Source: a virus
DNA: 43,548 nt
Virus record (IMG/VR): IMGVR_UViG_3300042731_008280
Direction: 5' to 3' (one strand)
A model generated the notes under the pieces. That model had not been told where the DNA came from and did no database searches. It saw only the letters and a program-made list of their open reading frames with translations. The translations under genes and the position numbers were made by a program. Positions 7,634 to 40,279 of the stretch are shown one piece after another; positions within the stretch are counted from its first letter, which is position 1; every line of letters begins with the position of its first letter.

Positions 7634-7846
7634 TCAATGTACTTTAATGTCTTTTTCTAAATTTTCAACTAATTGATTAAAATCCTCACCACACCGTTTA
7701 CATATTAAATTATCCACAGATTTAAAATCATGTCCAAGCTCATGACATTCAGTCCATTTACCTTCTTCCTTTAAACGCTCAGCATAATTTTTTACAGTTT
7801 TATCATACAATTTTTTAGAGATAGCCATATTAATAAATCCTTCCAC
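7634..7846 (-). CDS. Small Cys/His-containing protein (CHELGH...CKRCGE).
   Basis: 70-aa ORF with zinc-ribbon-like residues. Confidence 0.35.
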   Translation of the reverse strand: MEGFINMAISKKLYDKTVKNYAERLKEEGKWTECHELGHDFKSVDNLICKRCGEDFNQLVENLEKDIKVH

Positions 7847-8393
7847 TATGGAGTAGATATTTTAGTATTACTGCTGTATTAAAAGCATCGTCAGCACCAC
7901 AGTGTTGTCTACCTAGAAAATCCTTACCCAATACTTTTAATGCATCGGTTACGCTCAAACGTATATTCATTCCAATTGCCAATGTAAACAAATCGCTTAC
8001 ATTTATATGCGATTCTCCAAACGGATAAGTTGCATCTTTTGATATACACTCTTCTTCAAAATGTATTCTATCGCCATCTCCCCAACTAGCCCACACTCTA
8101 TTTTTCGTTCCATATTCCTTAGACATTTTATTACAGGCATGCGCAAATGGTATCCCATTCTTGACTGACTCCTGGGTATGTCCAGTCAATTGTGTACAAT
8201 AATTACTAATGTCGGAGTATTCTGGTCTAATAATATAACTATGACTTCGTGATATATTAAAGGTTTTGCTGTTTAACATACAAACGCCTATCTCAATAGT
8301 TTCAGCGGGTATGTTTTTATATTCGTCTTTCGTGGCATAGCAGGTCAATTCAATATCTACCACCACAATATTATCAAATCTTTTAGTTCCCAT
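7830..8393 (-). CDS. DEDDh-family 3'-5' exonuclease (DnaQ/KapD/ERI-like).
   Basis: Exo I motif VVVDIELT and Exo III motif HCGADDA. There are acidic residues in between. Confidence 0.7.
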   Translation of the reverse strand: MGTKRFDNIVVVDIELTCYATKDEYKNIPAETIEIGVCMLNSKTFNISRSHSYIIRPEYSDISNYCTQLTGHTQESVKNGIPFAHACNKMSKEYGTKNRVWASWGDGDRIHFEEECISKDATYPFGESHINVSDLFTLAIGMNIRLSVTDALKVLGKDFLGRQHCGADDAFNTAVILKYLLHSGRIY

Positions 8394-8396
8394 ATC

Positions 8397-8837
8397 TTAT
8401 TTATTTAATTCTTTATCAATTTGTTCCGTCTTAGAAAGTCGACATGAAAAAAATGCGTCAGATATCATATTAATTTCATGGACTTTCCCATCCACCATGA
8501 TAAAATCACTTCTTAATAGTCCCATAACTGCGTCGTATAATTGCCGAGCAGAAATTCCCAGTTCTCCTAATATTTGTTTACCGGAAACTGATCCATAATC
8601 CCTAATTGTTTTCAATACGGATAATTTAATGTCGTACATTTTATGTAACTTATTATTGTGTAATCCGGCAGTACACAAAATACTCCGAAGTTTCGGACTA
8701 GATTGACAGTCAAATGGATGATCAAACTCATAATCACATGAAACCAACTTAAACCCCCTATTTTTTAACCATATAGTAATTGCATCAATTACATCATCAT
8801 TCGACAAAGCTATCTGTAAATTACCGCTTATTTCCAT
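8397..8837 (-). CDS. Hypothetical protein with a probable winged-helix segment.
   Basis: KTIRDYGSVSGKQILGELGISARQLYDAVMGLL is HTH-like. Confidence 0.35.
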   Translation of the reverse strand: MEISGNLQIALSNDDVIDAITIWLKNRGFKLVSCDYEFDHPFDCQSSPKLRSILCTAGLHNNKLHKMYDIKLSVLKTIRDYGSVSGKQILGELGISARQLYDAVMGLLRSDFIMVDGKVHEINMISDAFFSCRLSKTEQIDKELNK

Positions 8838-8854
8838 TGTCTAATCTCCTTGTG

Positions 8855-9766
8855 TTATCTCAAATATTTTTCTCTAATTTTTACACATTCGTTACCGAGG
8901 CCAACAGCCGAACACACATGTCTGTGCAAAGGTTTTTTTCTAGTATTTCCCATTATTCCATTCTCAGCATCATGTGGTAATATTTTTCCTATATTTTCAA
9001 GGAATATTTCTAATCTGTATTGTATTGACAGGCATGGATTATCCGCATGTACTTCTATTATATCGTACTCATCATGTTGTCCCATTAAATGCATTAATTC
9101 ATGTCCAATACCATTATAATCACCAGTCCAATTATGAGTGGTCCCCCACTTACCTGGATCAACACTAATCATAAACGTGTCGTCATCTATATCCAGTTCA
9201 CTTATAAATATTAGATTTACAGAAAAACCTTTTACATGTAAATGCTTTTCTATAGCATCCTCTAATAACATTATATTTTTTATATTTTCTAAACTACCAA
9301 CAAGGTGTACTTTGATATGTACAAGGATATCAAGAGGATCATTGTTTATTATATAATAATATGGTTTTTTATTATATGGACTGTATTTCTTCCAATTTGA
9401 TATACCTTTGGTGGCCTCGTAAAATTCCTCTATATTTATATACTCCTCTAAGTCAGACCTAACCTTTCCGATAATATTACGTCTTATATTTTTACTTGCC
9501 TTAATGGATTCTTCTGCCCACAATTTTTGCACTTTTTCAAGGTATAATGGGTCTGTAGCTGGAGTATTTAACAATTCCTGTAACTTCCCATAATAATATT
9601 CTTTCCTATCGCTCTTCAATATCTTTTTTACTATTTTTTCGACTAATCTTATTTCTGGCTTATTAAGTCCACTGTACTTTTTTGTCAAGTCGTTGTGTGA
9701 AACCACTGTAGCACAACCATATAATAAAACTAATATAATGATCGACAATAAGTACGACATTTTCAT
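8855..9766 (-). CDS. Predicted lipoprotein with an HExxH (zincin-like) motif, 303 aa.
   Basis: Signal plus Cys (LLYGCATV), and a GIGHELMHLMGQHDEYD motif. ATG lies 5 nt after the upstream stop. Confidence 0.55.
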   Translation of the reverse strand: MKMSYLLSIIILVLLYGCATVVSHNDLTKKYSGLNKPEIRLVEKIVKKILKSDRKEYYYGKLQELLNTPATDPLYLEKVQKLWAEESIKASKNIRRNIIGKVRSDLEEYINIEEFYEATKGISNWKKYSPYNKKPYYYIINNDPLDILVHIKVHLVGSLENIKNIMLLEDAIEKHLHVKGFSVNLIFISELDIDDDTFMISVDPGKWGTTHNWTGDYNGIGHELMHLMGQHDEYDIIEVHADNPCLSIQYRLEIFLENIGKILPHDAENGIMGNTRKKPLHRHVCSAVGLGNECVKIREKYLR

Positions 9767-9771
9767 AATAA

Positions 9772-38108: not shown

Positions 38109-38180
38109 TCTATAAACCTTGAATTTTAAAATATATACCGAGTGCAATCCGTGTTCCAATTGATCTTACAGCACAAATGA

Positions 38181-38615
38181 TTAATATTTGTTCCCGACCC
38201 ACCTGTACATTGAAGCACGACCATGCCGACCATTATGTTCTACCGGTATTCCTTCGATCGACGCAGCATGGCGTAAAATAGCCGCCGTGATTTCTCCATC
38301 CACCTCTGCAAGCACTGATAAGCCTTTCGGGGCAATCCATGTGTTTGGAATCTGTCGCATAGCAGTAAATACTGCCTGCTTCTCTTCCATATGTTGGCTC
38401 CTGCGCTCGGGTCGCGTAGGTGCCGGCACGACACTAGTCATCGCCTTTAACCTATCGCGCTCTTTGATAGCAATTGTTAGATCGTTCGAATTTTTGTCTA
38501 ATTTTCCCTGAGTAGTGCGCATCCTTTCTATAAGCCTATGGCGTTCTGAAAGAATATTATCCACATTAACCACCGCTCGGTCAAATTTTTCATAGAGATT
38601 CATTATCTTCCTCAT
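38181..38615 (-). CDS. Hypothetical protein, 144 aa, with a GC-rich C-terminal half.
   Basis: ORF with a composition shift. Confidence 0.4.
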   Translation of the reverse strand: MRKIMNLYEKFDRAVVNVDNILSERHRLIERMRTTQGKLDKNSNDLTIAIKERDRLKAMTSVVPAPTRPERRSQHMEEKQAVFTAMRQIPNTWIAPKGLSVLAEVDGEITAAILRHAASIEGIPVEHNGRHGRASMYRWVGNKY

Positions 38616-38944
38616 TCAACTTTACATGCATTAAAGAAACGATCCGAGTCAAATCTTTTGTTCAACTTTTTGAATAAAATAGCGAAATTAATGGCCAGAA
38701 ACTTTCTATACTGATCGTCGGGTGCTACGGCTATCAATTTTGCGACATATATAAAATGTTTTTTCGTCATTTACCATTCTCACAAAACACTGGGAATTAT
38801 ATCGCCTTTATCCCAGGGGTTGATAGGCAGGAACATACCCTAGCGAAACCCATCTCCCTAAAAATCTCCAACCAATGATAATTCCGCAAGCATTACCATT
38901 TTTAGGGCTACGGCTTTAATAATTTGTGTGTCGACAAATTGCAC

Positions 38945-39097
38945 CTAATAATACAAATCTGTCGCAGGATCAGCATCCTCAAACAATCTGTCGATCTCTT
39001 CTTTGAGAGATTCGTCTATTTCTTCTGGAGGACCGCCATGATCTGGTCCTAATGGTTCCTGTTCTTTCTCTTCTACAACATCCAGCTCACGGTTCAT
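38945..39097 (-). CDS. Small acidic protein, about 50 aa (not in the ORF track).
   Basis: MNRELDVVEEKEQEPLGPDHGGPPEEIDESLKEEIDRLFEDADPATDLYY. Confidence 0.25.
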   Translation of the reverse strand: MNRELDVVEEKEQEPLGPDHGGPPEEIDESLKEEIDRLFEDADPATDLYY

Positions 39098-39412
39098 AAC
39101 AGTCCTTCATATAAAAATTAATTATTATTACTATTTTTTTTATTCACAACAATGCTAAGTAAATATCTTCTGATACGAAGACATAAGTTCAATATGATCT
39201 TTAAAATGTTTTTCACATATAGAAGCAGTAAGTTGGCCATTAAATATCTTAGTTACTGATACCATACCATCACATGGTTCCCCGTTACTCTACACACATC
39301 TTTAATGTTTGTTTGTTACCTTGGCTACAATATTAGTAATAGGGACTACTGCTATTCCAACAATACTAATTAAAGCGTCTCGTATAAAAATTCTTCTATC
39401 CATTTCATTATC

Positions 39413-40279
39413 TCATATAAGGAATTGTTTAAGCAATTTAACTGTTTTTCTTCCTATCGCCTTCCTTACTTCTTTACTCTCCACTATTTCGCCTTTTGCT
39501 TCAGTAAATACATCCGCTATCATACCTCTAATAATTTTACCAATATCCTCAACAGTAGGTTTAGTAATTCCAATTGCATCAAGCACGTGGATGAGCCTCT
39601 GGCCCACTACCCACTCATCAGCAATTTCGCGTGCATCTTCAAGTATTTTTAATCTCTCTGGATCAGAAAATTTCGGAGTATTTTTTCTCTCAGCAAACTC
39701 TGGACGTCTGTGTTTGCAGATAATACGGCCACCATTCGCGTATCCTACTTCAATGAGCGGACGAAGGACTATTCCCTCCCTGATTTTTCCTTGGCCACAA
39801 CCTCTGCGAATGGCGATCTCACTATCTTTCATCATCGCTGCATTAATAGCGTCTTCAGTAATATCAATGATTTCATATGGAACAAACTCTTGGCCGAATT
39901 TTGTAGCAATTTTCTCTGCTTGTGGCACACTCAACCATTGCCCATCAATATTTACTTCGAATGCAATAAATTTTAAATCCTTACCATATGTATCGCTCAT
40001 CCCATGTAAACTGCCGTACGCTTCACCATAAATAACAATCTCATTGCTGCCAGGATATTCTATGTAATTTTGACGAAACAATTCTAATAATTTTCCCTGA
40101 TCAAACAATTCCAAGAATTCATCGTGTTTTGAGTAACCCGAAAAAAATGTCAATCTGTCTTCTGATGCCCTATATTTTATATGACTTGAGGTCCCATGAC
40201 ATTTCTCTAACGCATAAGCTTGCTTAAAATATAGGATATCTGTATTCTTATATAAATTTGGAATTTTTCGATAACCCAT
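39413..40279 (-). CDS. Rnl2-family RNA ligase (nucleotidyltransferase domain only).
   Basis: Motif I EKCHGTS (T4 Rnl2 has EKIHGTN), EGIVLRP (IV) and ICKHRRPEF (V). GGAGAT SD. Confidence 0.8.
   Translation of the reverse strand: MGYRKIPNLYKNTDILYFKQAYALEKCHGTSSHIKYRASEDRLTFFSGYSKHDEFLELFDQGKLLELFRQNYIEYPGSNEIVIYGEAYGSLHGMSDTYGKDLKFIAFEVNIDGQWLSVPQAEKIATKFGQEFVPYEIIDITEDAINAAMMKDSEIAIRRGCGQGKIREGIVLRPLIEVGYANGGRIICKHRRPEFAERKNTPKFSDPERLKILEDAREIADEWVVGQRLIHVLDAIGITKPTVEDIGKIIRGMIADVFTEAKGEIVESKEVRKAIGRKTVKLLKQFLI

Follow-up and report, generated by a model that had tools for sequence, protein, structure and literature searches.

The stretch of DNA analysed here, hereafter the window, comprises 43,548 nucleotides of IMG/VR virus record IMGVR_UViG_3300042731_008280, and encodes two RNA ligases, a polynucleotide-kinase-like enzyme, a metallophosphoesterase (MPE), a Thg1-like protein (TLP) and several tRNAs. 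It corresponds to bases 3442–46989 of a 52,110-bp JGI metagenome contig (3300037297, Ga0394146_0000049), and the genome sequence covered in this work is 52 kb. Three Logan contigs (SRR12668987) are 100% identical to the window. The minus strand carries every plausible gene: there are ~95 short, co-oriented open reading frames (ORFs), most of them without homologs, with tRNAs interspersed among them and a GC content of roughly 33–41%. The genes and tRNAs of interest are the following:

28794–29879, minus strand: Rnl1-family RNA ligase, 361 aa (Pfam RNA_lig_T4_1, 47.5 bits over the full profile, 1–227; PHROG 562, 3e-42)
39413–40279, minus strand: Rnl2-family RNA ligase, 288 aa, nucleotidyltransferase (NTase) domain plus Rnl2-type C-terminal domain (Pfam PF09414, 45.2 bits)
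21195–21644, minus strand: standalone Pnk-like P-loop 5'-kinase, 149 aa, without phosphatase domain (Pfam AAA_33, 41.6 bits)
12067–12795, minus strand: calcineurin-like MPE, 242 aa, candidate 3'-end healing enzyme (Pfam Metallophos, 41.3 bits)
37341–38108, minus strand: bacterial-type TLP, 3'-5' templated nucleotidyltransferase, 255 aa (Pfam Thg1, 99.1 bits; Thg1C, 31.9 bits)
36550–36624, minus strand: tRNA-Ile(UAU) (ARAGORN; Rfam tRNA)
36474–36549, minus strand: tRNA-Phe(GAA) (ARAGORN; Rfam tRNA)
23599–23675, minus strand: tRNA-Glu(UUC), CCA encoded (ARAGORN; Rfam, 60.3 bits)
7830–8393, minus strand: ERI1/KapD-like DEDDh 3'-5' exonuclease, 187 aa (Pfam RNase_T, 44.2 bits)
1246–1866, minus strand: bacterial-type peptidyl-tRNA hydrolase Pth1, frame-disrupted (Pfam Pept_tRNA_hydro, 149.6 bits, profile positions 10–183)
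16268–17248, minus strand: RlmN/Cfr-like radical-SAM RNA methyltransferase, 326 aa (NCBIfam TIGR00048 RlmN, 2.6e-20; Pfam Radical_SAM)
19351–19425, minus strand: non-canonical tRNA whose anticodon loop has 8 nt, ACGGUCAA (Rfam tRNA, 52.7 bits with an 8-nt loop insert)

A preliminary description of this DNA, made from the letters alone, had proposed seven of these enzymes (the two ligases, kinase, MPE, TLP, exonuclease and Pth). At the level of profile matches, all seven family assignments are confirmed: the ORFs lie on the minus strand at the coordinates claimed, each scores above its curated Pfam gathering cut-off (7/7), and the PHROGs concur. The shorter ATG starts chosen there for the TLP (38108), the kinase (21644) and the MPE (12795) coincide with the starts of their homologs, and its three canonical tRNAs (Glu-UUC, Phe-GAA and Ile-UAU) are recovered by both ARAGORN and Rfam. 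The claim concerning Pth stands in part: the family is clear (Pfam 149.6 bits), but the gene is not intact, and at 1246–1866 it lies outside the span (7830–40279) in which it had been placed. The fourth, non-canonical tRNA (19351–19425) and the RlmN/Cfr-like gene (16268–17248) are additions to that list.

Ligases, candidate end-healing enzymes and the Thg1-like protein

As a single-sequence query against solved structures, the Rnl1-family ligase has no match, and a profile is needed to place it: family profile A1 (seven members) matches T4 Rnl1 (2C5U) at 1.6e-26 over T4 residues 38–318. Three motifs are invariant across the seven homologs—K94-V-D-G (motif I, KxDG), E225-G-Y-V (motif IV) and K238-V-K240 (motif V)—and align to KEDG, EGYV and KIK, respectively, of T4 Rnl1. 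The profile match does not end with the NTase domain but takes in the C-terminal region specific to Rnl1 (positions 17–366 of 377 in PHROG 562). Because its score against the NCBIfam equivalog (35.5 bits) falls below the cut-off of 242, the window protein is a divergent member of the family.

The PF09414 match of the Rnl2-family ligase spans profile positions 5–169 of 171, PHROG 548 ('RNA ligase') is matched at 7e-22, and phage matches include T4-type rnlB genes. Family profile A3 matches T4 Rnl2 (2HVQ, 8e-6) from motif IV on, the Rnl2-specific C-terminal domain included, aligning residues 146–285 with T4 Rnl2 residues 180–324. Motif I (K26-C-H-G) is invariant in the three homologs. Motif V reads K189-H-R191 in the window versus K-H-K in L011 and L012, the two homologs nearest to it; the T4 counterpart is K225-x-K227.

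The kinase and the MPE are the weakest links of the set and were hence tested via gene context; in scans of viral contigs with either protein as a single sequence, no matches were obtained. Most libraries know the kinase simply as "AAA_33" or "ATPase", and its PHROG matches are 2071 (3e-31) and 505, 'polynucleotide kinase' (1e-12). It, too, needs a profile, the single-sequence query giving no match among solved structures. The best solved matches of family profile A2 are to the T4 Pnk kinase (1LY1/1LTQ, 1.6e-5), and the next polynucleotide kinase is CthPnk (4GP7, 5e-4), matched over nearly its full length (positions 4–139); these E-values are modest, and P-loop-only matches to other ATPases are interleaved with the polynucleotide kinases. 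Invariant across the family are GxxGSGK(T/S), A39-D40, N84-T85 and H128-x-V-P. GVSGSGKT and A39-D40-D of the window kinase align with GCPGSGKS and R-D35-D of T4 Pnk (DD of 'ADDY/F' versus 'RDDY' in T4). An Arg at +3 from the Asp is missing (ADDFF), and a possible lid Arg varies across the family; in T4 Pnk, the arginines that bind the phosphate of the 5'-terminal nucleotide are R38 and R126.

Three unrelated phages, the T5-like Vibrio phage Chester, Aeromonas phage 2L372X and Pseudomonas phage Pyxpy02, have kinase homologs (38–39% identity) whose genes come directly downstream of an Rnl1-family ligase gene and beside Metallophos genes. The three genes form a contiguous Metallophos-Rnl1-kinase cassette, and in two of these phages the reading frames of ligase and kinase share a few bases. 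The family occurs in at least 559 deposited phage records, mostly labelled "ATPase". The window kinase gene itself lies at least 7 kb from its own ligase and phosphoesterase genes. Homology and the conserved cassette suggest that the kinase phosphorylates 5'-OH ends.

The Metallophos match of the MPE covers profile positions 2–189 of 191, and PHROG 1649 is matched at 1.7e-46. Its metal-binding motifs are invariant in four homologs: D9-x-H11, G38-D39, G67-N68-H69, H165-H166 and G205-H206-x-H208. A profile search of solved structures matches 6UNC, Lmo2642, MPPED2, MJ0936 and SbcD/Mre11, and the nearest of these are cyclic-nucleotide or generic phosphodiesterases. Because its sequence is nearest to phosphodiesterase-type MPEs, the proposed role of this protein as the 3'-end healing enzyme rests on gene context. 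Homologs are found (i) surrounded by tRNA genes within the arrays of Brevundimonas phage Gurke and Myxococcus phage Mx1, (ii) ~200 bp upstream of an RNA ligase gene in Caulobacter phage Cr30, and (iii) 1.8 kb upstream of a TLP gene in an IMG/VR locus (L035).

The Thg1 match of the TLP spans profile positions 2–130 of 130, that is, the whole catalytic domain, and PHROG 4717 is matched at 2e-67. Among solved structures, it is closest to the Thg1-like protein 4KGK (3.5e-35, residues 23–259); eukaryotic Thg1s are matched at ~1e-11. The metal-binding carboxylates are kept, with RCDGKAF and QSDEITF aligning to VRIDGAHF and QSDEISI of 4KGK, and D33, D78 and E79 are invariant in seven phage TLPs. At the site of HINNLYN, a eukaryote-specific anticodon-recognition motif of Thg1 (PMC6471195), the TLP has KNSIS, like the bacterial protein (window WRQNDCVKNSIS versus human Thg1 WRQADCHINNLYN). 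Bacterial and archaeal TLPs carry out templated 3'-5' addition, or 5'-end repair, on 5'-truncated tRNA in vitro (PMC3061083). Homologs are annotated in 162 deposited phages (as tRNA-His guanylyltransferase) and occur in at least 581 IMG/VR stretches; phage homologs are never mentioned in a 2019 review of TLPs, and a literature search found no functional study of a phage TLP.

Near the TLP gene, the genes for tRNA-Ile and tRNA-Phe abut (36474–36624; Rfam 68.9 and 72.4 bits). The idea that this pair might supply substrates for 5' repair, like overlapping mitochondrial tRNAs, was rejected: the acceptor stems of both are complete and fully paired, and CCA is encoded.

Several paralogous genes neighbour the kinase and MPE genes. 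Just upstream of the kinase lie three tandem MORN-like repeat paralogs (19842–21158, minus strand) with weak DUF6745 matches and ~85% mutual DNA identity; a fourth, MORN_2-like protein is encoded at 14784–15311 (minus strand). MORN-like homologs (~60% identity) are also encoded directly upstream of the TLP in L001, the closest TLP locus. Three further tandem paralogs (10882–11385, 11382–11744 and 11717–12055, minus strand) share an N-terminal GF(V/I)SNSSSxSF motif. They lie directly downstream of a SPASM-like radical-SAM gene and upstream of the MPE gene, the first matches PHROG 7397 (unknown function), and their products might be modified by radical-SAM enzymes as substrates or might themselves be enzymes of an uncharacterised family.

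The heal-and-seal reading and its rivals

Similar sets of activities are encoded side by side in two other viral loci. The first, L098 (IMGVR_UViG_3300015607_002611, 4421–18556), is an RNA-repair island of ~14 kb on one strand, containing a PF09414 ligase, Rnl1, an Rnl2-family ligase, a TLP, a 3'-5' exonuclease, RlaP (a ligase-associated Pol-beta NTase), a GIY-YIG homing endonuclease, a Metallophos protein, and a kinase that clearly belongs to the same family as that of the window. Its exonuclease gene, which starts 10 bases past the TLP gene, is of the DEDD type (PolB-exo-like) and differs from that of the window. The second, in Vibrio phage D69 (OZ195729), occupies ~12 kb of one strand and encodes a CCA-adding enzyme, an NTase, a TLP, Rnl1, a 299-aa Pnk and a phosphoesterase. 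By activity, L098 matches the window and adds RlaP, and most of the window's activities are present in D69 as well. In profile scans of the window, no RlaP, RtcB, 2H, HAD, KptA, CCA-adding or Hen1 gene was found. For study of the gene set, L098 offers a cleaner model than the window does.

What was observed, as described above, is that the proteins belong to their families, that the catalytic motifs are intact and that gene neighbourhoods recur in other phages. Our reading, to which we assign a probability of roughly 0.6, is that the window carries a distributed RNA heal-and-seal repertoire, plus spare tRNAs, in the accessory region of a large phage, and that this repertoire most likely mends tRNAs cut by host defences. 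We infer its substrates, order of steps and anti-defence role as follows: (i) a host tRNase would cut a tRNA, leaving a 2',3'-cyclic-phosphate or 3'-phosphate and a 5'-OH end; (ii) the MPE would open or remove the 3' phosphate, freeing the 3'-OH; (iii) the 149-aa Pnk-like kinase would phosphorylate the 5'-OH; (iv) the Rnl1-family ligase would close breaks in single-stranded loops, as does T4 Rnl1; (v) the Rnl2-family ligase would close nicks in duplex stems, as does T4 Rnl2; and (vi) the TLP would refill missing 5' nucleotides of the acceptor stem by templated 3'-5' addition. The phage tRNAs (Glu, Phe and Ile) would stand in for depleted host species.

A number of observations weigh against this reading. 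The repair genes are spread over ~39 kb among roughly 90 ORFs, interleaved with unrelated ORFs and forming no operon; therefore, the window alone is insufficient to show that they belong together. Nor do TLP and repair genes generally travel together. In a survey of 87 TLP loci, de-replicated at 70% TLP identity to 37 lineages, neighbours within 10 kb of the TLP gene included Rnl1 in 3/37 lineages, the kinase in 2/37, the MPE in 2/37 and Rnl2 in 1/37; these counts approximate the chance expectation for genomes of such size and, because the survey profiles are narrow, are lower bounds. A general co-localisation of TLP and ligase genes, as suggested by early matches (L001, L007 and D69), was rejected on the Rnl1 count, and the TLP is thus an occasional, not obligate, companion of heal-and-seal genes. 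At the level of single proteins, the MPE is by sequence within the superfamily but not of the lambda-phosphatase/Pnkp subtype, lambda phosphatase being absent from its solved-structure matches up to E=1 in the profile search. The Arg at the position of T4 K227 in the Rnl2-family ligase, a conservative K to R change, is a caveat. Homologs of the exonuclease occur in only three records of the phage collection, and the gene has no informative neighbourhood of its own. Finally, the Pth ORF as sequenced lacks the N-terminal GLGNP segment, the family match starting at profile position 10.

The dispersal of the genes over ~39 kb and the absence of TLP-ligase co-location in most lineages favour an alternative in which independent accessory genes merely co-reside in a gene-rich phage region. 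Rnl1 could then be a tail-fibre attachment catalyst (like T4 gp63), the kinase could phosphorylate a substrate other than RNA ends, the MPE could degrade cyclic-nucleotide immune signals or process tRNA, and the ERI1-like exonuclease could degrade host nucleic acid. Such roles are in keeping with the dual annotation of PHROG 562 ('RNA ligase and tail fiber protein attachment catalyst'), with the phosphodiesterase-type enzymes nearest to the MPE, with the anti-signalling roles proposed for some calcineurin-like phage enzymes (Iyer et al., PMC7824862), and with a kinase family labelled only 'ATPase' in most databases. Co-residence is, however, opposed by the recurrence of the Metallophos-Rnl1-kinase cassette in three unrelated phage lineages, by the L098 and D69 islands, in which similar activity sets lie side by side, and by the repeated embedding of the MPE family in tRNA arrays. 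We consider this account possible but rather unlikely.

A second alternative concerns the TLP, which might serve tRNA-His maturation by adding G-1 opposite C73 of a phage or host tRNA-His, and so support translation rather than repair. Annotation as tRNA-His guanylyltransferase is routine in deposited phages (162 records), templated G-1 addition is possible for bacterial TLPs (PMC3061083), and phages with the associated MPE family (Mx1 and Gurke) encode tRNA-His. Yet no tRNA-His was found in the window or elsewhere on the contig, nor in eight related loci up to 10 kb from the TLP. The TLP lacks the HINNLYN motif of true Thg1, the TLPs of L098 and D69 sit among ligases, exonuclease and NTases, and the G-1 of bacteria is encoded by the genome (PMC3061083). 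Taken with this evidence, a function in tRNA-His maturation appears improbable.

Within the heal-and-seal reading, a more specific role for the TLP can be proposed, although we hold it to be doubtful: not a tRNA-His enzyme, it would act in acceptor-stem repair once a defence nuclease has nicked or trimmed the stem, with the exonuclease tidying ends, the TLP rebuilding 5' nucleotides on the 3' strand as template, and Rnl2 sealing the nick. The basis for this proposal is the adjacency of Rnl2, TLP and exonuclease genes in L098, together with the co-residence of such genes in the window; weighing against it, the survey gives no general linkage of TLP and ligase. Retron Eco2, which nicks tRNA acceptor stems (PMC12916289), is an example of a defence nuclease of the kind required, and it is a matter of speculation that nick products of this type would suit Rnl2 plus TLP. 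If true, acceptor-stem repair would be the first physiological role for bacterial-type TLPs, and a second axis of the tRNA arms race beside anticodon-loop repair.

The assignment of the window to a large phage draws on its protein relatives. Nucleotide searches of deposited phages found no relative of the window. Its closest protein relatives are encoded on IMG/VR contigs of 180–440 kb and in "uncultured phage" genomes LR7565xx/LR7452xx (462–735 kb), which are huge phages of Al-Shayeb et al. 2020 (PMC7162821). Because its relatives sit on such contigs and genomes, we read the window as an accessory region of a large, uncultured and probably huge phage. Domain and profile scans of the 52-kb contig found no capsid, terminase, tail or packaging genes, and the phage assignment is therefore by inference. 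That the contig instead derives from a bacterial genomic island or plasmid, its RNA-repair genes serving the cell, is very improbable: the missing capsid, terminase and tail genes, the bacterial-type Pth1 and three TnpB copies would fit, but strong PHROG matches (TLP, Rnl1, Rnl2, MPE, DprA-like protein and radical-SAM protein), the ~95 short, same-strand, mostly homolog-free ORFs with interspersed tRNAs, and the location of the top homologs all argue for a phage.

The three TnpB/Cas12f1-like paralogs lie at contig positions 2692–3909, 46091–47308 and 50937–52091; two are 405 aa long and one is called at 384 aa. They share ~85–90% protein identity, and their flanking DNA is also ~89–91% identical. 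One paralog is cut at each end of the window (43081–43548 and 1–897, minus strand). The similarity of the flanks suggests an IS-like element that has been multiplying in the phage genome.

Peripheral genes of the window

The exonuclease, the disrupted Pth1 and the RlmN/Cfr-like gene are peripheral to the repair genes, and their involvement is uncertain. The best solved relatives of the exonuclease are ERI1/3'hExo (1e-15), with D13/E15, the D of the GDGD segment and H164/D169 aligned; its match to NCBIfam KapD (1e-23) is below the equivalog cut-off. The enzyme may trim RNA ends, and its membership of the repertoire is tentative.

Pth is not an end-healing enzyme and, like the exonuclease, is tied to repair only loosely. 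It scores 135.8 bits against NCBIfam pth, above the cut-off, and the TRHN, the D of HDD and the N of HNG are all kept. The canonical N-terminus, MIVGLGNPEK (MQKMIVGLGNPEK), lies just upstream in a frame shifted by one nucleotide (~1767–1832), and the frame junction is an A4 run (1793–1796 of the window). Conceptual insertion of one A gives a full-length match (profile positions 1–183; 171 versus 149.6 bits) and restores the GNP-x6-TRHN spacing; the Asn of GLGNPG is Asn10 in E. coli Pth numbering. The frame break could reflect a pseudogene, -1 recoding or an assembly error. The site (CCA GAG AAA AGA) is not a classical X_XXY_YYZ slippery heptamer of the kind used in programmed -1 frameshifting, and the JGI and Logan assemblies, both 100% identical to the window, provide no independent check on the frame. 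Only 21 records in the phage collection match Pth, and these are mostly unannotated fragments; among jumbo phages, a bacterial-type Pth1 is reported in a single one, PTH2 being usual (Iyer et al. 2021, PMC7824862). The start of the Pth gene is overlapped by 8 bases by a gene for a DprA-like/SLOG protein (1859–2389, minus strand; PHROG 768, 5.6e-39). In Pyxpy02, ~6 kb separate the ligase-kinase cassette from a homolog of the latter, whose neighbours include macro-domain, NAMPT and PRPP-synthase genes.

The match of the RlmN-like protein covers positions 73–342 of 355 in TIGR00048 and is below the equivalog cut-off. The translation shows CxxxCxxC and a C-terminal CGQL motif, homologs were found in only 15 phage records, and the enzyme could modify A2503 of rRNA or A37 of tRNA. 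Up to three other radical-SAM-like ORFs lie nearby (9772–10869, 15639–16322 and 17305–18171, minus strand), the first of which is SPASM/twitch-like and matches PHROG 7293.

The non-canonical tRNA has a G3:U70 pair and A73 and, unlike the other three tRNAs, no encoded CCA. G3:U70 and A73 are alanine identity elements. ARAGORN gives it the four-base anticodon ggtc (GGUC), and it may decode quadruplets, act as a decoy or be degenerate. A role as suppressor of the Pth frameshift was rejected: quadruplet decoding amounts to a +1 shift, and Pth needs -1.

Two further sets of genes were noted. An 833-aa protein (2533–5034, minus strand) contains major-vault-protein Shoulder (4e-22) and Vault_3 repeat (1.6e-10) domains, and its gene adjoins one for a YbaB/EbfC-like DNA-binding protein (5156–5503). 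In the phage collection, its homologs are confined to LR756500, LR756501 and LR756503 (huge phages, 462–735 kb), at ~41% identity. Three divergent isochorismatase/nicotinamidase-like paralogs are encoded at 25901–26404, 28261–28770 and 42505–42978 (minus strand); only the first scores above the Pfam cut-off, and all three have the D...K...CGVN-x3-C pattern. They may act in NAD+ salvage or counter-defence.

Comparison with known repair systems

A close functional analogy is the repair of PrrC-cut tRNA-Lys by T4 Pnkp and Rnl1 (with Rnl2), in which, as proposed for the window, 3' and 5' ends are healed and then sealed. The preliminary description had drawn this analogy for Pnk and Rnl1, and it is borne out by the kinase family, whose best solved relatives are the kinase domains of T4 Pnk and CthPnk. 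The likeness to T4 extends to the motif I, IV and V residues of Rnl1, the C-terminal domain of Rnl2, and the T4 Pnk kinase domain as closest solved relative of the window kinase. There are three differences. Firstly, the window kinase is a standalone protein of 149 aa without the HAD (DxDxT) 3'-phosphatase domain. Secondly, the candidate 3'-healing enzyme of the window is a separate binuclear metallophosphoesterase, and the genes lie 8–10 kb apart. Thirdly, identity to the T4 proteins is low and detectable only by profiles.

The Pnkp/Hen1 system of Clostridium thermocellum combines a P-loop 5'-kinase, a calcineurin-type phosphoesterase and an ATP-dependent ligase, all of which have counterparts in the window. 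These are fused in bacterial Pnkp but are separate polypeptides in the window, where the ligase is of the Rnl1 type rather than a Pnkp ligase domain, the MPE is not lambda-Pase-like by sequence, and no Hen1 methyltransferase was detected. The earlier comparison with bacterial Pnkp, its activities distributed over separate genes, holds, with the Metallophos-Rnl1-kinase cassette of three unrelated phages providing a contiguous version.

Among viral loci, L098 shares with the window a TLP, Rnl1, Rnl2, a 3'-5' exonuclease, a Metallophos protein and the window's kinase family, but its exonuclease and Metallophos protein belong to other subfamilies. D69 shares the TLP, Rnl1, Pnk and phosphoesterase, but has a 299-aa gene product annotated as polynucleotide kinase. 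Both are compact (12–14 kb) and include RlaP and/or CCA-adding NTases, whereas the genes of the window are dispersed. The TLP itself resembles the bacterial Thg1-like protein 4KGK (PMC3701042) in its metal-binding carboxylates and in having KNSIS in place of HINNLYN, and differs in being phage-encoded.

Further parallels are with jumbo and huge phages; the window's best homologs lie in huge-phage genomes. According to Iyer et al. 2021 (PMC7824862), the tRNAs of jumbo phages are accompanied by any combination of Rnl1, Rnl2 and RtcB; the polynucleotide kinases and phosphoesterases are "congruent" with the ligases, calcineurin-like and HD phosphatases being few; CCA-adding NTases and RlaP occur as well; Thg1 is "sporadically present"; and peptidyl-tRNA hydrolases serve ribosome rescue. 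In huge phages, tRNA ligation genes are reported by Al-Shayeb et al. 2020 (PMC7162821). This catalogue matches that of the window, with the differences that the window Pth1 is bacterial-type and frame-disrupted, that RlaP, RtcB, 2H and HAD phosphatase are lacking, and that an ERI1-like exonuclease and an RlmN/Cfr-like enzyme are added. The preliminary description had called the set an unusually complete kit, with novelty implied; this is unsupported, because such repertoires are described in PMC7824862 and PMC7162821 and the TLP is annotated in 162 deposited phages.

Beyond this, the analysis points to three subjects that have been little studied: a widespread cassette (a standalone kinase of 130–150 aa, an Rnl1-family ligase and a Metallophos protein), the MPE family embedded in tRNA arrays, and the phage Thg1-like proteins. 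Cultivable phages with clustered versions—Vibrio D69, the T5-like Vibrio Chester and Pseudomonas Pyxpy02—are better experimental entry points than an uncultured fragment. The window is a further example of the known phage RNA-repair repertoire, not a new kind of system, and as such adds one well-motivated example to the heal-and-seal repertoires of large phages that are probably directed against tRNA-targeting immunity.

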